In this document: one piece after another, positions 4,872 to 51,428 of the stretch
Position numbering within the stretch: position 1 is the stretch's first letter
Layout of the letters: each line of letters starts with the position of its first letter
Origin: a virus
Virus record (IMG/VR): IMGVR_UViG_3300021476_000002
Span: 16,578 to 80,577 of that record
Strand: one strand, 5' to 3'
DNA: 64,000 nucleotides
The notes under the pieces: model-generated
Told to the model about the DNA's origin: nothing
Databases searched by the model: none
Seen by the model: the letters and a program-made list of their open reading frames with translations, nothing else
Position numbers and translations under genes: made by a program

Positions 4872-5297
4872 GTGGTCTCAGAAACAGAGCATCGAACAAA
4901 CGTTCGGGCAGTACAACGGTGGTGCAGAGGCCCCGTTGTGCTGCCTGTTCCTTTATATGAAGCGTGGTGGGAGAGGGTTCGAGAACACCGGCGCACAGGA
5001 ACACCAATAGATCGAACAGAGGTTCGAGAAGCCATTGATGATGTCATAAAGTCGGAGATGGAATTGTCCGGTCGAAGCCGGGAGCATGTCGCTGCTAGAT
5101 TGAACATCACGGCTGCCGATTATTTCAACCTGTTAATTCGTGTAATTGACGTGCATTCTGGGGATGTTGGGCGGCCATGTGGCTACGATGTAAACGACAT
5201 GATTCTAAAATATCCTCCAGACGGTAAGCATTACGAAGAGAAATGCCCTCGCTGTGGAAATCGAATTGACTTCATTACAGCCGTCTACCCAGACTGA
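4872..5297 (+). CDS. Hypothetical protein with C-terminal CxxC
   Basis: AAGGAG RBS before GTG; CPRCG motif. Confidence 0.55.
   Translation: MVSETEHRTNVRAVQRWCRGPVVLPVPLYEAWWERVREHRRTGTPIDRTEVREAIDDVIKSEMELSGRSREHVAARLNITAADYFNLLIRVIDVHSGDVGRPCGYDVNDMILKYPPDGKHYEEKCPRCGNRIDFITAVYPD
4893..4906. promoter_or_regulatory. SOS-box-like palindrome CGAAC-AAAC-GTTCG
   Basis: Perfect match to the Gram-positive/actinobacterial LexA box pattern, read directly from the sequence. Confidence 0.5.
5012..5027. promoter_or_regulatory. SOS-box-like palindrome TCGAAC-AGAG-GTTCGA
   Basis: Perfect TCGAAC-N4-GTTCGA, about 120 bp from another perfect box. Confidence 0.55.
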
Positions 5298-19066: not shown

Positions 19067-19453
19067 GTGACACAGTGTATGTGGCCAATGGGTGCTAAGC
19101 CGGAAGACGAAAACCGGTGTAAGAACAAAGCCACAAACGATCTTCAGGCTACCGCGAGGGGCAAGGCTCTTAGTACAGACCCGAAAGGGAATCCCGTCAA
19201 GATTCCCATAATGGGTAAGGTCCGCATGTTTGTGTGCGACGAACACCTTGAAGGCTCTAAGGCTCAGTACGGCGTAACGCCGTTCGGTCCAAACGTGGAA
19301 GACGTAATCATTGATGTTATTGTGGGGCCGTGGCCCCCGCGTCAGTATCGGGAAGACCAGCGAGTCGTGATTGGAAACCCGGCGGACGAGTACAGCGAAA
19401 AGTATGAAAACCCGGATGAGCCTTTCATACGTGGTGGGAAGGGTTGGAGATAA
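19067..19453 (+). CDS. Hypothetical protein (Cys/His)
   Basis: C...C...CDEH motif. Confidence 0.55.
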   Translation: MTQCMWPMGAKPEDENRCKNKATNDLQATARGKALSTDPKGNPVKIPIMGKVRMFVCDEHLEGSKAQYGVTPFGPNVEDVIIDVIVGPWPPRQYREDQRVVIGNPADEYSEKYENPDEPFIRGGKGWR

Positions 19454-21528: not shown

Positions 21529-22266
21529 ATGCCGCGTCTTCTCCACGAGAAGATTCTCGCTAGTGAAACATTATCCGAATTGTCCGAAGGTGCCCAAAGT
21601 TTGTGGTGGAGGCTGATCGCTGCGGCTGATAATTTTGGACGGTTCCCTGCGGCAGCATCTGAGATTGTTTTGCTTTGCTATCGGTCCAATCGGTATAAAG
21701 AAATAACCGTTGCGGCGTATATGGTTGAGGAAGCGACAAAATGGCTTCGTGAGATGGAATTAGTTGGAGCAGTTGAGATATACGAGGTAGATGGTCGGAA
21801 ATATGGTCGGTTTGTGAATTGGCGTGAGTACCAGCGTGTGACTCGGAAAACTCTAGGTTTATATCCTCCGTCGCCGAGTGAGCCTGCCGCAAGAGGACCC
21901 GCAAAAGGAAAGAGTCCCCAGGCTCCAAAGGTTCTCCACCCCGTTTGCAAGTTGGATTTTGAGACATGGACATTTAAGATTGACCCTGCTTTGCTGGACA
22001 GGTGGGATAAAACGTTTGTTTATGTGGACCCGAAACAATGTATTAAGAAGGCTGAGGAGTGGGTCCAAAGGAAATGGCCAGCGTCTCGCAAGAAAGATTG
22101 GGAAGGATTTTTGGTTAAATGGATTTCTAGGGACGATATGAAAGTTATGGAATCCGGGGCGAAGCCTAGGCATGGTCATGAAGTCCCAAAGAAATTACCC
22201 GACCATGTACAGCGGTGGGTAGATAGTGCTAAAAAGCAATACCAAAAGGAGGAAGAGGGATGGTAG
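21529..22266 (+). CDS. Phage replication initiator (replisome organizer/DnaD-like)
   Basis: LSELS..AQSLWWRLIAAADNFGRF...YEVDGRKYGRFVNW..YQ wHTH N-terminus; directly upstream of DnaB. Confidence 0.75.
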   Translation: MPRLLHEKILASETLSELSEGAQSLWWRLIAAADNFGRFPAAASEIVLLCYRSNRYKEITVAAYMVEEATKWLREMELVGAVEIYEVDGRKYGRFVNWREYQRVTRKTLGLYPPSPSEPAARGPAKGKSPQAPKVLHPVCKLDFETWTFKIDPALLDRWDKTFVYVDPKQCIKKAEEWVQRKWPASRKKDWEGFLVKWISRDDMKVMESGAKPRHGHEVPKKLPDHVQRWVDSAKKQYQKEEEGW

Positions 22267-23651
22267 ATCGTACACCGAGGAATGATTTGGCTGAGCAGGC
22301 GGTTCTTGGTGGTCTCATGCTTGAGGGTGAGTTAGTAAAGACGGTTCGGCCTTTCTTGAGCGAGGTTTCATTTTACTCATCTAAACATCAGGAAATTTTC
22401 GGGGCTATTACATGGCTTGACGATCACGGTCAGCCGATTGATCTTTTGTCTGTAACGGACGTGCTTCGCAAGACAGGCAAATTGGACGATATAGGCGTGT
22501 TGTATATCACGTCTTTACCGAACACAATCCCAACGACCGAGAATTTGGACTATTATGTTCAATTGGTTCAGGATGCCGAGAATCAGCGTCAGACGATTCG
22601 GTTGGGGCAGGAATTGCAAATACTTGGGCGGGACGGCCTTATGACCCCAGAGGAGCGGTACACAAAGGCTAACGAGTTGCTGAAGGCTGCGATGGGGTCT
22701 GTGCGGTCTAAGAGTAGGATTGTGGGGGCCGCTGAAGGTGTGCAGTCAGCATTAACGGAATTGGGGCGTGCCATGACTACTAAACCAGGAGATGTGCCGG
22801 GGGTTCCCTTTCCGTTTGTTTTGCCGGTTCTGAATGGTGCAACGGGCGGTCAGTTGCCTTCCGAGGTGAGCGTTGTTCAGGCTCGAACAGGCGAAGGCAA
22901 AAGTGTTTTTATTGGTCAATGCCTTGAGCAAGCCGCGAAGTCTCGTGGGCATTCTCTTTTATGCTCGAATGAGATGAACCACGAACATTATTGGGCGCGA
23001 ATCCTTGCGGGAAATGCTCAGGTGAATAGCATGGTGTTTCGCAATGGGCAGGTTATGCCAGGGGACCGCGAGAAGATTTTCTTAGCCGCCAAGGTATTTA
23101 ATGACATTCCGATTTGGGTGAGCGATAAGTGCTACACCATGACGGATGTGAGGGCGTCGGCTTACGAATTGGCTGATCGTGTGGCGGACCATGGTGGAAT
23201 CAAGTGGATTGGAATTGACTGGCTTCAGTTGATGCACGGTACTGGTCGTAAGTATTCTAATAAGACATCGGAGTTGGACGAGATTTTGCAGGGGTTGAAA
23301 GAATTGGCAGCCGAATTGAATGTTCCAATTATGATAAACAGTCAGCCGAAGGTGGCGGATTATAAGTCGCAGTTGACCGCCGTGAGTGGACGTGATAGCG
23401 GTATGGTTGGATTCTTTGCAGATAACGTAATTTCTATTGAGCCGTGGCCGGAGTATGAGGGATTGAGGGTTGATGATGGGTGGGCCGCGAAGATTACTCT
23501 GACGAAGGTGCGGTCTGGCTCTGCGAAGTTACCACAGGAAGCATGGTTTGATGGGCCGCACGCGCAGTTTATTGCAATGGACGTATGGCACCAGCGGCAA
23601 AAACCCAAGTGGATACCCAATGGTAAGACAGACCAAGACGAAACCATCTAA
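22260..23651 (+). CDS. dnaB: Replicative DNA helicase DnaB
   Basis: AEQAVLGGLM...FY..KHQEIF N-domain; Walker A ARTGEGKS; SNEM; IDWLQLM; LKELAAELNVPI. Confidence 0.95.
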   Translation: MVDRTPRNDLAEQAVLGGLMLEGELVKTVRPFLSEVSFYSSKHQEIFGAITWLDDHGQPIDLLSVTDVLRKTGKLDDIGVLYITSLPNTIPTTENLDYYVQLVQDAENQRQTIRLGQELQILGRDGLMTPEERYTKANELLKAAMGSVRSKSRIVGAAEGVQSALTELGRAMTTKPGDVPGVPFPFVLPVLNGATGGQLPSEVSVVQARTGEGKSVFIGQCLEQAAKSRGHSLLCSNEMNHEHYWARILAGNAQVNSMVFRNGQVMPGDREKIFLAAKVFNDIPIWVSDKCYTMTDVRASAYELADRVADHGGIKWIGIDWLQLMHGTGRKYSNKTSELDEILQGLKELAAELNVPIMINSQPKVADYKSQLTAVSGRDSGMVGFFADNVISIEPWPEYEGLRVDDGWAAKITLTKVRSGSAKLPQEAWFDGPHAQFIAMDVWHQRQKPKWIPNGKTDQDETI

Positions 23652-25401: not shown

Positions 25402-26074
25402 GGCGTTGGTTTTGAATCGAGAGCCGGAAGCACCAACCAACGTATCACCAGACAAGGCGAAGATTGCTCATGAACTACATACCGATTTATTGGAGCGTAA
25501 GAACAGGATTACGGCTGAGAGTTTTGCTGTAGCCGCTATTCTTAAGCGTATCCGTGATGAGAGATTCTATGAAGCGTTAGGATACGCGCACTTCCAGGAT
25601 TACGCTCGATCTGTTTTTTCGACAGAGGCTACGGCGCACAAACTCATCTCGGTGTATGAGACCTACTACATACGGAAGCCCCCGATGTTGCCTGAGAATA
25701 CAGACTTGAGTGGGATTGATTATGACAAATTGTATATGGTTCGTCCGATGTTGGACCCAAAGAAGCCGGAAGAATCTGCTGAGTGGGTTGAGAAGGCGCG
25801 GCAGTTGTCTCGAAATGACCTGCGTGAAGTAATGGCTGAGGAGCGTAGGAAGCGTACTGGTCAGTCTGAACCCGAGGTGCAAACCGGTGGTAACGGGGAC
25901 CCCTTTAAGGAGATAAACCGTAAACTCATGCTGTTGGTGGGCAAGGTTATCAATTCCGTGAAGGTTGACAGGGATAGCAGTCTTGTTTTGGTGGCCGAGA
26001 AGACCCGGTTGCGGGTTAGGCCCGATGGGGATTTGATTGACATTCGCGTGACGGAATGGCAAAATGATAAGTAG
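25367..26074 (+). CDS. Hypothetical DNA-binding protein (DUF3102-like)
   Basis: AILKRIRDERFYEALGYAHFQDY...AHKLISVY...IDYDKLY...EWVEKA..LSRNDL pattern. Confidence 0.5.
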   Translation: MGAHQGKPRQSRALVLNREPEAPTNVSPDKAKIAHELHTDLLERKNRITAESFAVAAILKRIRDERFYEALGYAHFQDYARSVFSTEATAHKLISVYETYYIRKPPMLPENTDLSGIDYDKLYMVRPMLDPKKPEESAEWVEKARQLSRNDLREVMAEERRKRTGQSEPEVQTGGNGDPFKEINRKLMLLVGKVINSVKVDRDSSLVLVAEKTRLRVRPDGDLIDIRVTEWQNDK

Positions 26075-44330: not shown

Positions 44331-44542
44331 AATCGGCAGCCATAATCGTTCCATTCAACAGCAACGTGACGTATGATGTCACGGCGAAGAATCCGTTTCC
44401 TGGTGTTCTAACAATTGAAGCACCAACGGAAGCCGCCCTCCTAGATGAGTTGTCATTTTTAATGACACAGATTTCAATTACGTTTGAGGACATTTCCAAA
44501 AATAGACTAAGAAAGTATCAGGATGGAGGAGCGGGATGCTAA
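44327..44542 (+). CDS. Hypothetical protein
   Basis: ATGA coupling. Confidence 0.45.
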   Translation: MKSAAIIVPFNSNVTYDVTAKNPFPGVLTIEAPTEAALLDELSFLMTQISITFEDISKNRLRKYQDGGAGC

Positions 44543-44928
44543 ACAGAATCATACTGATAGGTAGGCTAACGCGGGACCCGGAACTGCGGTACGTTCCTAG
44601 CGGTGCGCCCGTTGTGAATTTCACGCTGGCCGTAGATCGTCCGTTCAAGAATGCCAACGGCGAAAAGGATGTGGATTTTATTGACGTGCAGGCGTGGCGA
44701 AAATTGGCTGAGTTGGTCAGTCAGTATACATACAAGGGCATGATGGTGGCTGTTGAGGGTAGGCTCCAGATTAGGTCTTGGGAGGCACAGGACGGTCAGA
44801 AGCGGAAGTCCACAGAGGTTGTGGCCGATGGCGTCAGGTTCCTTGGTGGTAAAAAGAAAGGTGACGCTGAACCCGAGTCTGAGCCGGTAGAGGCCGAGAA
44901 GCCTCTTGACGAAGATGTCCCATTTTGA
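44536..44928 (+). CDS. ssb: Single-stranded DNA-binding protein
   Basis: MLNRIILIGRLTRDPELRY...VEGRLQIRSW...TEVVAD; C-terminal EDVPF. Confidence 0.98.
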   Translation: MLNRIILIGRLTRDPELRYVPSGAPVVNFTLAVDRPFKNANGEKDVDFIDVQAWRKLAELVSQYTYKGMMVAVEGRLQIRSWEAQDGQKRKSTEVVADGVRFLGGKKKGDAEPESEPVEAEKPLDEDVPF

Positions 44929-45725: not shown

Positions 45726-46796
45726 ATGACTCGGAAGGGTACGTTTGACGTACAAGATATAACTCGGGAGGGCGCGATGCCTGAAGAGACAGTTGCAAAC
45801 ATTAGTGATTTTGCCGGGGACGCTCAAATCTCTGAGCAGGGTGAGGTTGGAGAGTCCAAAGAGAATAAGGTTAAGCGGGCGTTGACGGCGGGTGGCCAGA
45901 TTTGTCAATGGTCCGCATACGGGGCCGATGCGTGGATGCCTTGCGCTGACACCAAGGTAACGCTTCCTAATGGTGTATACACGATTGAGTCCACAAGGAA
46001 TGATGGAATTGTGTTCGTGAAGCACGCCCTTGTTGTGGATAACATCATTGAATTTCCTGATTCTCAGAGTGCGAAGGTTGTGGATGAGATCGAGCGGTTC
46101 TGGGACGCGGGTGAGAGGTTCGTCGGTCTTGGATTCGCGCACCGACGTGGATACTTGCTCTATGGTCCTCAAGGTTCTGGAAAAACTTCCCTTGTGATGA
46201 TGGCGATGCACAGGGTTGCAAAGCGTGGCGGCATTGTGTTCTTGATGAACAATGAGCCTGAGTTGTTTACTCGTGGTTTGGAGTTGTTCAGAAGGATTGA
46301 GCCTGTGCGCCCGGCGCTGTGCGTGTTCGAGGATGTAGACGCTATTCTTCGGAGGCATAATACATCTTTGGTGTTGGCTCTGTTGGATGGTGAATCTCGC
46401 ATTGACCACGTACTCAATGTCGCTACGACGAATTATCCTGAGATGCTAGACAAGCGAATTGTGGCGCGGCCACGTCGGTTTGATCGTGTTATCAAAATTG
46501 GAATGCCTCCGTATCATGTAAGGCTCTTGTATCTTCAGAAGAAGGGGTTGGACGATGCTCATGCCGAGAGGTTGTCCAAGAGTACGGAGGGTTTGAGTCT
46601 TGCGGCGTTGGCGGAAATCCTGGTGTCCTCGAAGGCTTTGAATATTACGGAAGAGGAAGCCATTAAGGCCATGAGGGATATGGCCACGGCTGAGCCTTCG
46701 AGTGAGAAGTTTGGTAAGGAGGGCAGGAGGATTGGTATTGGGGGAAGAATACCTGCCTATACTGGAAAAGTAGAAGACCCAGAAGATGATGAGTAA
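45726..46796 (+). CDS. AAA+ ATPase (classic AAA clade)
   Basis: RGYLLYGPQGSGKT; FEDVD Walker B; TTNYPEMLD...RPRRFD second region of homology. Confidence 0.93.
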   Translation: MTRKGTFDVQDITREGAMPEETVANISDFAGDAQISEQGEVGESKENKVKRALTAGGQICQWSAYGADAWMPCADTKVTLPNGVYTIESTRNDGIVFVKHALVVDNIIEFPDSQSAKVVDEIERFWDAGERFVGLGFAHRRGYLLYGPQGSGKTSLVMMAMHRVAKRGGIVFLMNNEPELFTRGLELFRRIEPVRPALCVFEDVDAILRRHNTSLVLALLDGESRIDHVLNVATTNYPEMLDKRIVARPRRFDRVIKIGMPPYHVRLLYLQKKGLDDAHAERLSKSTEGLSLAALAEILVSSKALNITEEEAIKAMRDMATAEPSSEKFGKEGRRIGIGGRIPAYTGKVEDPEDDE

Positions 46797-47019: not shown

Positions 47020-47041
47020 GGACATCCTGACCTGCGTGAAT

Positions 47042-47085
47042 GGGGCGGGATGTCTGCCTGGGCACCCCGCCCCTGTCGTCTTTAT
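47042..47085 (+). terminator. Intrinsic terminator-like hairpin
   Basis: GGGGCGGG...CCCGCCCC followed by a T-rich stretch. Confidence 0.6.
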
Positions 47086-47366: not shown

Positions 47367-47948
47367 GTGGACATAGAAAGAGATGTGACTGAGCAGGTTT
47401 TGGAGGCCATGGGTGAAAATGTTCCAAAGGAAAAGCCTGATTATCCAATTTGGGAGATCGAGAAAGATTTAGCAAACGATACACTCTTGAAGGATTCGAC
47501 AATGCCGGGGACGTTGGTTACTGGCAGCGCCGTGTTTCACCAAAAAGCGCATGAGTATGTTCAGCAGTTAGTTAACCGCGTGAAGATTTTGGAGACGCAG
47601 CAGGACAGGCTTCTTCTTGAGGAATGGCCCGTTAGGTATCAGGTTGAGCGGTTCGCAAGGAACATGGAGGCTATGCTACGTCGTAAGGATTGGAAGAGTG
47701 GGTGGGAGAATGTAGACCCGGCTCGATTGTTCATGTACTTAGCCCTTGAGATGGATGAATTGCGGGAGGAATTTTTGAAGGCAGATAAGGCATCTCGGAA
47801 CTCTGAGATGCGCGAGGTGCTTAGCAATAACATCGCTGAAGAGACGGCTGATGTGGCAAACTTCGCTATGATGCTATGGGAAGTGATGTCTAGTGTTGAG
47901 TTAAGCGGAGGCATTGATCGTGGCGCTACCGAGGATTCGGGTGCCTGA
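47367..47948 (+). CDS. MazG-like/all-alpha NTP pyrophosphohydrolase domain protein
   Basis: LALEMDELREE...EETADVANFAMML ExxE/ExxD motif. Confidence 0.7.
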   Translation: MDIERDVTEQVLEAMGENVPKEKPDYPIWEIEKDLANDTLLKDSTMPGTLVTGSAVFHQKAHEYVQQLVNRVKILETQQDRLLLEEWPVRYQVERFARNMEAMLRRKDWKSGWENVDPARLFMYLALEMDELREEFLKADKASRNSEMREVLSNNIAEETADVANFAMMLWEVMSSVELSGGIDRGATEDSGA

Positions 47949-48217
47949 TCGTGTTTGCGAATGCGGGCATTTTGAAATTGAGCATCGCCCTATTTACGGT
48001 TGCTTTGCTATTAGTTTGTTCCATGCTATATGTTGTGGATGCAAGGAATTTCGTGAGAAGCGGCGTAGTAGAACTAACCGCCGACCAGTACGCAGCGATA
48101 ATGCGCGATCAGCCAAGCGGGTCAAGGATATGGCGACTCGGACCTTTTAGGAACCTCGAAGACTGTGAGAGGGCCGCGCAGGCCCTACATACGACGTTGA
48201 AGTGTACAAATTTGTAG
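47914..48217 (+). CDS. Two overlapping small ORFs (47914-48150 Cys/His finger; 47951-48217 with GPF..C motif)
   Basis: CECGH...H...C...CCGC..F in one frame; WRLGPFRNLEDCERA in another. Confidence 0.4.
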
Positions 48218-48274
48218 TCGTGGTACTACAAAACAGTAGTAGTTGTTGACTTTGGTAAAGCGGATTGATATATT
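48211..48274 (+). promoter_or_regulatory. Sigma70-type promoter with upstream inverted repeat
   Basis: TTTGTAGT-N6-ACTACAAA 48211-32; TTGACT-17-TATATT. Confidence 0.65.
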
Positions 48275-48280
48275 AAGCAT

Positions 48281-48408
48281 GTCAGTTATGGCTGAAAGAC
48301 GGGGACGCTGGCTCTAGCGGGCAATAACAGAGCAGGCGTCCCATAAAGATTGGGGCACCGGGGGATGGTAATGCGCCGTGCGCGTTGCCGTCCCCTAAAT
48401 CTTTTTAA
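48281..48408 (+). ncRNA. Structured leader/sRNA ending in a terminator-like hairpin
   Basis: GGGACGC..GCTCT/AGAGC..GCGTCCC hairpin; 16-bp hairpin 48361-95 with three G-U pairs followed by TCTTTTT. Confidence 0.5.
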
Positions 48409-48424
48409 GAAAGGAGGGAAAAAT

Positions 48425-48553
48425 ATGGTGCATTTCCTGGTTCATGATCTTCCTTGGATTGCTGTTGGTTTTGTTGTTGGTGGTTTCTTTCCCGCTTGGG
48501 CATTGGCAGCCGCGAAGTGGGTTGCCGCCGAGTGGAGTCAGTACGTTCATTAG
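48425..48553 (+). CDS. 42-aa hydrophobic membrane peptide
   Basis: AAGGAGG RBS; MVHFLVHDLPWIAVGFVVGGFFPAWALAAAKWVAAEWSQYVH. Confidence 0.6.
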   Translation: MVHFLVHDLPWIAVGFVVGGFFPAWALAAAKWVAAEWSQYVH

Positions 48554-48719
48554 TAATCCCTGCCAACCGCCGGAATGGCGGAAGGATGGGGTTGAGGTAA
48601 GGTCGGGCAGTCCCACGTGGGCATGGCGCTACGACCGGGCCGGAGCGGGGTGGGGGCGACCGGTATGTTGAGGAGGTGCAATATGATGTGGTTAAGATGG
48701 TTTTTGACCGGGGGAAGCC

Positions 48720-49397
48720 ATGGAGGAACAAATGGCCCACCCCCAAGCGAAAAAGTTATCGGCTAAAAAAGAAGCCGTAGCGTTAGAGCGGTACAAGAAA
48801 CACGAGCGACTTGCCATCAAACTTGCCCGCGATATGGCAGCCAAGTCACGCCGTATGGATGAGTTGGAAGACTTGATTCAGGAGGCTAGGATTGGTTTGT
48901 GGACAGCGGCCATTCGGTTCAAGGAATCGGCGGGCGTTAAGTTCTGGACGTATGCAAATTGGTATGTCTCTGGAAGTCTTCAGCATTGGATGAGGGACAA
49001 GGCGTGGGTAGTGAGAAGTCCGAGAATCGGGGCAGATGGTAAGCCGCTACCTTCAGGTAAGCGTTGGGAGTTTCAGCCAACGTCGCTTGAAAATAGCGAT
49101 GGGTTGTCTGAGCAAGTCGTAGACCCGAACTGGAATGATGGATACGAAGAGGTTGAGAATAATATCGCCAAGGCACAGGCGTTGCAAGTGACAGGTTTGA
49201 CCTTGAGGCAGCGTCAGTTTCTTAATGAGGTGCGTATCGCCGAGTTGGAGGGAAAGACTAATTTAAGGGACGTGTTGAAGCGCATGAAGATGAAGGGTGG
49301 CAGCGCGTCCCGGATATGGAAGACAATCGAGCAGGCCATTTCAGATAAGAATAGACTGAATGGAAGCGGAGACCATGGTAACTGTTCAATGCGGTAA
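48720..49397 (+). CDS. Phage RNA polymerase sigma factor (sigma-70 family, SigB/F-like region 2)
   Basis: LAIKLAR...EDLIQEARIGLWTAAIRF...KFWTYA...G.L....RDKAWVVRSPR; degenerate region 4. Confidence 0.9.
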   Translation: MEEQMAHPQAKKLSAKKEAVALERYKKHERLAIKLARDMAAKSRRMDELEDLIQEARIGLWTAAIRFKESAGVKFWTYANWYVSGSLQHWMRDKAWVVRSPRIGADGKPLPSGKRWEFQPTSLENSDGLSEQVVDPNWNDGYEEVENNIAKAQALQVTGLTLRQRQFLNEVRIAELEGKTNLRDVLKRMKMKGGSASRIWKTIEQAISDKNRLNGSGDHGNCSMR

Positions 49398-49620
49398 GGC
49401 GGGTTGTACGCACGAGGCGATCTATGGAGTTTACTGCAAGACCAAGGATACAGGGATGTTTCCTGTTCACCTCCGTGGAAAGGTTGTGGCTACCCCAATT
49501 TGCGCTGAACACTTGTGTGATGTGTGCAATGAAGGTATGAAACAGGGCGCGTCGGTCTCAATTCTTTTCCTCGATACATTAGTTCCAGCATTAGCAAAAC
49601 AGGCGGCGTTTAATCACTAA
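49360..49620 (+). CDS. Cys-rich hypothetical protein
   Basis: C...C.H...C...C.EHLC..C; abuts terL. Confidence 0.5.
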   Translation: MEAETMVTVQCGKAGCTHEAIYGVYCKTKDTGMFPVHLRGKVVATPICAEHLCDVCNEGMKQGASVSILFLDTLVPALAKQAAFNH

Positions 49621-51428
49621 TGTCTGACATCGTAGTCCCAACAGACCTGGAACCATTTTTAACCGGAGACTCTGATAATTTCATTGAGCCTCCCGTTACC
49701 ATTGGAACGTTTATCGTTGGGGAAAAGTATTGCAACATGAAGGAGAGAATTTGGCCCGCTGTTCTGATGGAGTTGGTAAATATTTTCGGTAAGGACCCAT
49801 ACAAATTCGAGAATGAAGAGGCTGTGATTATCGCGGGGTTTGGTTCTGGTAAATCCTATTTGGTCTCAATGGCATTTACGTACATGCTGTACTGGCTCTT
49901 GAACATGAGGAACCCTCATAAGTATTTGCGTACAGGGTTGTCTCCTGGGTCCACGATCATGCTTGTTAACCAAGCCCTTCGGGAAGATCAGGCGCGGAAG
50001 ATTATTTTCCAGGACGTTGCGAACCTCGTTGGGGATGCGCCGTGGTTTGCGAATCACAATATGTTACCCGTGAAAAATGTCACCAGCGAATTGAGATTTC
50101 CCAAGAATATCGTTTTGTTTCCCGGTACGTCGTCAATGACGTTTCCTCAAGGGTACAATATGTTCGCTGGTGCGATTGATGAGGCTGCATTGTTCCAGGA
50201 GCGCACCATAGCAGGGGAGTTTGAAAAGACTGACCCCGCAGAGAAAATCCATGAGACCATGAAGGCTCGTAAGTTTTCTCGGTTTGGTAATAGGGGAATG
50301 ATCTTGGTGATTTCTTCTCCGACACACTTGGATGCTTTTATTGAAAGGCGCTATCGGTTTATTTTGGCCGGTGACCCCGATAGGGGTATTCCTAAGCCTA
50401 AGCGGTCGTTTGCGGATAGAAAAGCGCATTGGGAGATGAAGCCTGGGCCAGAAAAGGATGTAAATGGCCGATGGGTTCCGTGGCATTTCGTACCGTTTCG
50501 TCAGGTAAAGTATAATCCCGATGGTACTGAGGGTGATGTGTTTGAGTTGATGGTGCCTGATGTAATGATTACAGACTTTGAGGCAAACCCTGAAGCGTAC
50601 AAGCGAGACTATGCCTGTATTGTTGGCCGCACGGGCATGGGTTTCTTCTGGGACCCAGATGTTGTAACGAGGCCATCTAGCGGTATTGGACTCCCAGGGT
50701 TCAACCCGAATCATTTGTCACCTCTTATGGTTAATGGACAAATTGACACGAGACTGCGTTGGTCTGATATGAACTCAAACACTCGATGCTATGGACATTT
50801 TGACTTGGCATTAGCACGTGACGCCGTAGGTGTTTGCATTGGTCATATATCAGGCGAGACTGTGGTTCATGGTGAGCGTAAACCAGTTATTTATACTGAC
50901 CTGATGATGGAGATTAAAACTACTCCAGGGAATCAAATAGATTTTGCCAGCGTGCGTCAAATTGTTTGGGATTTCAAGGGACGTGGTTATCCAATAGCAG
51001 GCGTAACATTTGACCAATTCCAGTCAATCGAGGGGATTCAGCAGTTGAACAAGCGCGGTATGGCGGCGTCCGTTTTATCAGTAGATAAAGACACTTCGGC
51101 TTACGATATCATGAAGGAGTGTATCAACGAGGGGCGATTGGATTATTACAAGTACGAGCCATTTGAGGAATGTATCCGGTCTTTGGTTTTGGTTAACGTT
51201 GGTGGAAGGGCTAAGGTAGAGCACACCAAGACAGGCAAGAAGGACGTATCGGATGCCGTGGCGGCTGTGTGTTGGGTTTTAACAAGGTTATGGATGGGTG
51301 GCGAAGAATTCCTTCCATATGGCTCAGGTATAGGGACCATAACGATTCCAAGCCAGTTCGGAAGTCAATGGGGTAATGTAGCCGTGGCGGGACAGAGAGC
51401 GCCCAAGCGGGCAATCGTGGGAGGGTGA
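49620..51428 (+). CDS. terL: Terminase large subunit
   Basis: Walker A IAGFGSGKS; Walker B GAIDEA; ISSP coupling motif; RNase H nuclease GHFDLA...DAVG...FDQFQS...KDVSDAVA. Confidence 0.93.
   Translation: MSDIVVPTDLEPFLTGDSDNFIEPPVTIGTFIVGEKYCNMKERIWPAVLMELVNIFGKDPYKFENEEAVIIAGFGSGKSYLVSMAFTYMLYWLLNMRNPHKYLRTGLSPGSTIMLVNQALREDQARKIIFQDVANLVGDAPWFANHNMLPVKNVTSELRFPKNIVLFPGTSSMTFPQGYNMFAGAIDEAALFQERTIAGEFEKTDPAEKIHETMKARKFSRFGNRGMILVISSPTHLDAFIERRYRFILAGDPDRGIPKPKRSFADRKAHWEMKPGPEKDVNGRWVPWHFVPFRQVKYNPDGTEGDVFELMVPDVMITDFEANPEAYKRDYACIVGRTGMGFFWDPDVVTRPSSGIGLPGFNPNHLSPLMVNGQIDTRLRWSDMNSNTRCYGHFDLALARDAVGVCIGHISGETVVHGERKPVIYTDLMMEIKTTPGNQIDFASVRQIVWDFKGRGYPIAGVTFDQFQSIEGIQQLNKRGMAASVLSVDKDTSAYDIMKECINEGRLDYYKYEPFEECIRSLVLVNVGGRAKVEHTKTGKKDVSDAVAAVCWVLTRLWMGGEEFLPYGSGIGTITIPSQFGSQWGNVAVAGQRAPKRAIVGG

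Follow-up and report, generated by a model that had tools for sequence, protein, structure and literature searches.

The analysed stretch of DNA, called the window here, comprises bases 16578-80577 (64,000 nucleotides, nt) of the 113,878-bp IMG/VR virus record IMGVR_UViG_3300021476_000002, whose completeness is estimated at 87%. All coordinates are window positions unless marked as genome, and the functional readings are drawn from this one sequence. The element described here is a short regulatory region in which a promoter is followed by a leader with three hairpins (H0, H1 and H2), the last of them terminator-like, and then by the gene of a 42-amino-acid (aa) membrane peptide, a gene for a sigma-70 family factor and, further on, the gene of the large terminase subunit, TerL (Table 1). 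The + strand carries all long open reading frames (ORFs) and the GC skew is strongly positive throughout. Genes for a DnaB-like helicase, an SSB and an AAA ATPase are located upstream, and a 193-aa upstream protein is read as MazG-like. Downstream, the sigma factor is followed by an 81-aa Cys-rich protein, the large terminase and a trypsin-like protease, after which exonuclease and nucleotide-hydrolase genes come, so the region behind the protease is not purely structural. Because the replication genes are upstream and the sigma and terL genes are downstream, the element marks a module boundary.

Table 1. Features of the element, its neighbourhood and the second promoter-terminator unit (TM, transmembrane; folds are predicted)
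Feature	Position	Strand	Description
DnaB-like helicase	22260-23651		upstream of the element
SSB	44536-44928		upstream of the element
AAA ATPase	45777-46796		upstream of the element
Upstream ORF, first version	47920-48150	+	GGAGG ribosome-binding site; CxCGH...CCGC motif, then Arg/Lys-rich tail
Upstream ORF, second version	47951-48217	+	version picked by gene callers; TM segment
Tandem repeats	48205-48246		two 22-bp repeats with nested palindromes, adjoining the -35; candidate regulator sites; repeat search
Promoter	48246-48274	+	TTGACT-17-TGaTATATT; sigma-70/SigA-type, extended -10; score 10/12
H0	48282-48296	+	small 5'-terminal hairpin, 5 bp, -4 kcal/mol
H1	48302-48342	+	GGGACGCUGGCUCU / AGAGCAGGCGUCCC; -22.8 kcal/mol; loop holds CAAUAACA; clustered rank 45
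A-tract AAAGAUU	48345-48351	+	complementary to AAUCUUU (48398-48404); lower extension of H2
H2	48360-48396	+	terminator-like; 17 bp, 3-nt loop, 4 G-U pairs, -31 kcal/mol
Tail of H2	48397-48409	+	AAAUCUUUUUAAG; imperfect U-tract, three A adjoining the stem
Ribosome-binding site of peptide	48411-48419	+	AAGGAGGGA
Peptide ORF	48425-48553	+	42 aa; single-pass membrane; GxxxG-like GFVVGG motif
H3	48492-48535	+	hairpin within the peptide ORF; -26.2 kcal/mol, z -2.2
G-rich spacer	48554-48731	+	178 nt; no coding signal in open frame
Sigma-70 family factor	48732-49397	+	221 aa; PF04542 1e-11; TIGR02937 56.6 bits (cut-off 42.9)
H4	49267-49311	+	hairpin located in the sigma ORF; like H1 and H2, with the closing base GGGACG...CGUCCC
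81-aa Cys-rich protein	49375-49620	+	CAEHLCDVC motif; overlaps sigma end by 23 nt, adjoins terL
Large terminase subunit	49620-51428	+	602 aa; phrog_2 1.7e-10
Second unit	L007:233-352 (genome 112132-112251, outside the window)		promoter TTGACT-17-TATACT, then terminator

The promoter that a preliminary description of this DNA had placed before the leader is borne out. Sites scoring at least 10/12 number 14 on the + strand and four on the - strand of the whole genome, and those that also have the TG extension number nine and one, respectively. The majority of these strong sites fall in gaps directly before genes. Since the class is strand-biased genome-wide and found mostly in such gaps, the 48246 promoter is probably real; in a local scan of 9 kb, the count of promoter-like sites is equal to that of shuffles. 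Transcription would start near 48281, a position given by spacing only. The + strand has no sigma-70-type promoter of at least 9/12 between H2 and terL, and a simple k-mer search of intergenic gaps for a late-promoter motif gave nothing convincing.

The tandem repeats next to the -35 hexamer contain the palindromes TACAAATTTGTA, TTTGTAGT-N6-ACTACAAA and ACTACA-AAAC-AGTAGT. The last of these, at 48225, is a variant with an N4 spacer of the RCTACA-NN-TGTRGY operator, which overlaps promoters elsewhere in the phage; it is one of two such sites in the genome, and the observation is post hoc. The placement of the repeats would fit an activator, not a repressor.

The leader is highly structured. H0 is 1 nt from the inferred 5' end, and H1 is the long hairpin that had been noticed after the promoter. 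H2 had been presented as a 16-bp hairpin with three G-U pairs; the hairpin is confirmed and the counts are corrected to 17 bp and four G-U pairs, including the closing one, with 10 G-C pairs. In local fold stability, H2 ranks first among 22,766 overlapping 50-nt windows of the + strand of the 114-kb genome. When the windows are clustered, H3 ranks 17, H1 ranks 45 and a hairpin just past the peptide ORF ranks 121; four of the top 121 clustered hairpins fall in about 300 nt (48294-48600), where about 0.3 would be expected. The best 50-nt folds in the other leaders of the genome are far weaker, between -3 and -22 kcal/mol. The 130-nt leader (48281-48410) folds with -62.6 kcal/mol on the + strand (z -5.69) and with -44.7 kcal/mol as the reverse complement (z -3.21). 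Because the fold of the + strand is the stronger one via its G-U pairs, the leader structure is strand-specific at the RNA level, and the earlier use of these pairs as a mark of an RNA-level structure was sound.

The A-tract is 8 nt from the H2 stem. The segment AAAGATTGGGG, which contains it, had been proposed as an alternative pairing partner. The pairing is real, but AAAGATT/AATCTTT stacks under H2 in every predicted fold and does not compete with it, and this lower stem is present in both the minimum free energy and the centroid structures, giving a 24-bp interrupted duplex overall.

The evidence tips slightly towards H2 being a terminator, as predicted from its stem and tail. A U-tract had been described after the hairpin, and the U-rich tail is indeed there, although the tract is not uninterrupted. 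The tail, AAATCTTTTT, has T at 6 of the 10 bases past the stem, a level that about 3% of positions reach by chance, and the U-tract AAAUCUUUUU is formed by AAA beside the stem and then 6 U in 7. A stem of -31 kcal/mol together with UCUUUUU matches the terminator pattern. The clearest terminator of the genome, GGGGCGGGCGTGGGCCGCCCC (L007:320-340), has the tail UUUUUCUUUU, unlike the AAAUCUUUUU of H2.

This clearest terminator belongs to a second promoter-terminator unit. Its leader has a small hairpin with a UUCG loop, the unpaired segment ACAAUAACAAG and the canonical terminator GGGGCGGGCGTGGGCCGCCCC+TTTTTCTTTT; the terminator, GGGGCGGGCGTGGGCCGCCCC with UUUUUCUUUU, lies within about 50 nt of the promoter, whose -35 and spacing are as at 48246. 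The 11 strong promoters between 6140 and 44906 have no leader terminators. Behind the second unit comes an ORF that has a long acidic region and a length of at least 536 aa, and the record ends inside it; this ORF is not called a head gene because it has no PHROG or Pfam match. The resemblance between the two promoter-terminator leaders is not significant (local alignment P ~0.06).

The order of parts is promoter, about 80 nt, H2 with its U-rich tail, 14 nt, ribosome-binding site of the peptide, sigma, 81-aa protein and terL. The element is tentatively read as a promoter-proximal terminator gate at the regulatory head of the sigma-terL cluster, comparable with PR'-tR' of lambda and either leaky or opened by a factor; by default, it would give an RNA of about 125 nt. 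The probability of this reading is roughly 40%. In such a gate, the transcript from 48281 would fold at once into H0, H1 and the 17-bp H2, and most polymerases would halt about 7-9 nt past H2, releasing an RNA with two hairpins, some 125 nt long. Only the read-through fraction would express the peptide, sigma and terL, and its level may be set by the imperfect U-tract, as a constitutive leak, or by a phage factor that renders the polymerase resistant to the terminator. Read-through from the upstream replication module would be blocked by H2 as well. A deliberate design is favoured because no promoter of at least 9/12 lies between H2 and terL and because the second unit is the sole other strong promoter with a leader terminator. 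The preliminary description had proposed an attenuator that gates the sigma-terL operon: the gate layout is retained, and the RNA-switch form is abandoned, since no alternative fold rivals H2, and neither a leader ORF led by a ribosome-binding site nor an Rfam family was found.

Several points weigh against a gate. Three tail bases beside the stem are A and not U, so termination may be weak. Taken overall, the strongest hairpins of the genome show no excess of T-rich tails (4 of the top 20 have one; P 0.10). Searches for Q-family (PF03589, PF06530) and NusG-like antiterminators came back empty, in a record that is 87% complete. Judged by eye, the first 20 transcribed bases hold no good match to a -10-like pause element: AGTTAT (48284-89) comes nearest, agreeing with TATAAT in three of six bases but without the A of the second. 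Intrinsic terminator stems average 7-11 bp, and in pLS20, the one system studied, stems of more than 14 bp resist processive antitermination (PMC10325885), so the 17-bp stem argues against factor-dependent read-through. Finally, no collection searched has a relative near enough for covariation or conservation.

Some of the same features suit an explanation with no gate, in which H0, H1 and H2 are stability or processing structures in the 5' untranslated region of an mRNA that starts at the 48246 promoter and continues into the peptide, sigma and terL genes. The structures would protect the 5' end, or the 17-bp stem and the 7-bp lower stem would form an RNase III-type site, and H2 would only incidentally damp upstream read-through. 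The AAA right after the stem makes a poor U-tract, H0 is where a 5'-terminal protecting hairpin would be, and the interrupted duplex of 24 bp offers a long double strand. Further promoters with long structured leaders are found in the phage at 26037 and 44906, and the succession of a hairpin and the ribosome-binding site of the next gene recurs at window -16060 and 47038. However, the -31 kcal/mol stem with UCUUUUU fits the terminator pattern and the other leaders are far weaker. This explanation, the main rival of the gate, is unlikely, at about the level of a serious minority view.

A stand-alone gene for a trans-acting small RNA of about 125 nt, with the H1 loop CAAUAACA or the linker as its seed and with incidental read-through, is improbable, and it is compatible with the gate. 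It agrees with a promoter and a terminator that have no ORF led by a ribosome-binding site between them, and with the H1 loop, which is predicted to be 80% unpaired in the terminated RNA; StxS in Stx phages is a precedent (PMC7547250). The word CAATAACA has only three + strand copies in the 114-kb genome (48322-48329, 47825-47832 and L007:302-309), two of which fall in unpaired parts of the two promoter-to-terminator leaders, that of the second unit included. Against this, the shared 8-mer is not significant when all possible shared words are counted (P ~0.06), and the sole + strand complement, TGTTATTG, sits within a gene at 19315.

H1, H2 and H4 have a common closing base, GGGA(C/U)G...CGUCCC, an observation that is also post hoc. 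CGTCCC has 12 copies on the + strand of the genome, three of them within this 1 kb, and the pattern GGGA[CT]G-N8-45-C[GA]TCCC occurs four times, where about one occurrence is expected. The tail CGUCCC(C)(A)UAAA is common to H1 and H2. The three hairpins could be recognition sites for a factor or an RNase, or products of duplication. A more elaborate version of the gate would be a two-tier late switch, in which an RNA-binding factor reads the GGGA(C/U)G...CGUCCC hairpins, controls read-through or processing at the long-stem terminator and times sigma, with the second unit acting alongside; this version is a long shot.

A classical attenuator, in which an antiterminator fold or the translation of a mini-ORF (AUG 48279 or 48288 to UAG 48315) decides the formation of H2, is very unlikely. 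The parts for such a device can be pointed out: GGGGACG (48301-07) is complementary to CGUCCCC (48389-95), the CGUCCC of H1 is able to pair with the GGGAUG of H2, and the ORF of 9-12 codons, three of them Arg codons, spans the 5' arm of H1. However, barring the 3' arm of H2 from pairing leaves -38.5 kcal/mol for the best leader fold versus -63.1, and the 3' side of H1 pairs with the 5' arm of H2 (2:3) at -16.2 kcal/mol at best, versus -31 for H2. As no alternative fold approaches the stability of H2, an RNA-only switch is unlikely. No ribosome-binding site precedes the mini-ORF, whose first AUG is probably located before the transcription start. The cmscan check that had been proposed for the leader (gathering threshold and E<=10) found no Rfam family at E<1 and gave only a chance match to mir-1281, with 17 bits versus 70.

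Slightly less probable again is an element that works at the DNA level, as a packaging or protein-binding site near the terminase genes, or a chance structure with no function. The nearby terL and the two CGACCGG words of the G-rich spacer would agree with a DNA site, but 4 of the 17 pairs of H2 are G-U, which makes the DNA palindrome imperfect, and the - strand folds 18 kcal/mol worse. A chance structure is at odds with the first rank of H2 among 22,766 windows and with the shuffles, none of which folds as well.

The ribosome-binding site and the single-TM peptide behind H2 were correctly recognised in the preliminary description. AAAGGAGGG is 7 nt before the ATG at 48425, and this strong ribosome-binding site is 14 nt past H2. 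On its + strand the genome has 273 copies of GGAGG, most of them ahead of a start codon, versus 46 on the - strand. With a codon-position likelihood score trained on 66 ORFs of at least 150 aa, the peptide ORF scores 9.7, and real in-frame pieces of 42 codons average 9.5; only 1-2% of off-frame pieces score above 0, and 0.3% of shuffles or - strand pieces reach 9.7 (P ~0.003). Gene callers in two collections also call the 42-aa ORF, which is not independent evidence. The coding signal is absent from the 75-aa frame at 48444-48671, the 27-codon ORF at 48683-48766 and the upstream extension at 48350-48424. The TM segment of the peptide is LPWIAVGFVVGGFFPAWALAAA. No homologue or family was found for the peptide, the search returning only itself, with Atlas scores at chance level. 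It is probably a real small membrane protein, co-transcribed with sigma.

The idea that the U-tract or CUUCCUU masks the ribosome-binding site was rejected, the masking being no better than chance. An antisense unit, made by a 9/12 promoter at 49187 on the - strand and a 5-bp terminator at 48777, was likewise rejected, both parts being at chance level. That the peptide is a type I toxin or a lysis-timing peptide, with translation restrained by RNA structure or by an antisense RNA, is the least probable explanation of all: the peptide is small and hydrophobic with one TM segment, and its ribosome-binding site has a predicted unpaired probability of 0.13 versus a genome median of 0.45, but the masking fold is weak, at -8.5 kcal/mol, and shuffles do as well (z +0.8 to +1.3), the suggested look for an antisense RNA met no - strand promoter of at least 9/12, a sequence criterion, over or beside the ORF (48126-49158), and there are no homologues or families.

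The gap between the peptide and sigma had been described as hairpin-rich. The short repeats quoted for it are present, but its fold is at chance level (z -0.31), with 72 of 200 shuffles folding equally well. The spacer holds two copies of CGACCGG, 25 nt apart, and GGGGGCGACCGG (48598-48670), the latter resembling the cohesive-end sequence of lambda, GGGCGGCGACCT. At its end, the 27-codon ORF has a ribosome-binding site GAGGAGG, a 6-nt distance and ATGATG, and it overlaps the ribosome-binding site and start of sigma by 35 nt; this ORF could couple or modulate the translation of sigma. The identities given earlier to sigma and terL hold, and the start of sigma is revised: ATG 48732, preceded by GGAGG (48722-26), is more likely than 48720. 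This gene encodes the only clear sigma factor of the record. The 81-aa Cys-rich protein matched no family; a zinc-binding anti-sigma partner and a small packaging subunit are two candidate roles.

The region 47914-48217, directly before the promoter, has two overlapping ORFs, each with a weak coding signal. The gene slot immediately before the promoter is the position of Q in lambda, and here it would be filled by whichever of these two ORFs is real. As candidates for the Q position, the upstream ORFs have no family match. Very stable hairpins with short T-rich tails are also found at 47038-47077, 4905-4947 and genome 518-551 (window -16060). They lie within strings of co-directional genes, just before the next ribosome-binding site or just within an ORF, which suggests that partial terminators or processing hairpins punctuate the operons of the phage.

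The search for relatives covered nucleotide and protein collections. A blastn search against phage records gave no match, nor did sigma and terL against IMG/VR, sigma against GTDB genomes or the exact H2 pattern in IMG/VR. Among 5.8 billion proteins, sigma matched itself only; against metagenome contigs its single match is a bacterial dnaG-rpoD locus, which is not a relative. TerL has 3,505 relatives with an E-value up to 0.001. The closest two are 47-50% identical and lie on contigs of 3.5-3.7 kb: the first has only small genes of no family upstream, and the protein upstream of the second is unrelated to sigma (BLASTP E 4.8). Nor is a sigma-family gene present upstream of three TerL relatives with 38-40% identity. 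An intein (Pfam Intein_splicing) is present in one of the closest two, an 800-aa TerL with 50% identity at L002:657-3059, on a 3.7-kb contig of the NCBI assembly GCA_964468115.1. The sole public run with DNA of the phage is a cave metagenome, probably the source sample, and the contig there is identical. Among the public runs matched to the DNA, none is an RNA dataset with phage sequence.

If the gate is real, an uncultured phage would time its sigma cascade by termination and read-through, and not by promoter control only, without a known antiterminator family. The element would then also offer a test bed of about 130 nt for terminators with very long stems and imperfect U-tracts. As it stands, it is a well-defined yet ordinary-looking regulatory module in an orphan genome, and the annotation gains a promoter, a leader, a probable 42-aa gene and a corrected sigma start.

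Among known systems, the lambdoid late promoter is the one after which the gate is modelled. PR' is always active and its transcripts end just downstream, at tR', unless they are antiterminated by Q (PMC7547250; PMC6606751), and the short default RNA can itself serve as a regulatory small RNA, such as 6S/StxS (PMC7547250). The element resembles PR'-6S/StxS-tR' in its host-type promoter right after the last upstream gene, and PR'-tR' in the terminator about 100-200 nt downstream, the short RNA made by default and the late or packaging genes behind. It differs in that no Q-family gene and no clear sigma-dependent pause element were found here, the stem has 17 bp and the U-tract is interrupted by A. 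The first genes behind the gate are those of a membrane micro-protein and sigma, not of a holin or a terminase, and nothing is conserved in any relative.

Gram-positive phages and phage-like elements such as PBSX also have sigma-like late regulators, and in PBSX, Xpf is presumably encoded next to the terminase genes. Xpf (PMC4243946) and the RinA/ArpU-type activators (PMC3152322) are like the present sigma in being phage regulators of the sigma family directly before terminase genes. Their described control is made by repressors or activators at promoters, and the descriptions have no promoter-proximal terminator or micro-ORF. The terminator TerR of the plasmid pLS20 has a stem of 15 bp, which like the 17 bp of H2 is far longer than usual, and both its strength and its resistance to antitermination depend on a tail with at least 7 U (PMC10325885). 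It also shares with H2 an upstream A-rich segment complementary to the tail and a position at the end of a long co-directional gene block. In contrast to TerR, the tail here is AAAUCUUUUU, the A-tract is 8 nt from the stem and a promoter is located just upstream, which an end-of-operon terminator does not require. The 5' stabiliser leaders of Firmicutes and their phages likewise begin with a small hairpin and have stable hairpins just ahead of a strong ribosome-binding site, but H2 is far stronger than the other leader structures of this genome and is followed by a terminator-like tail.

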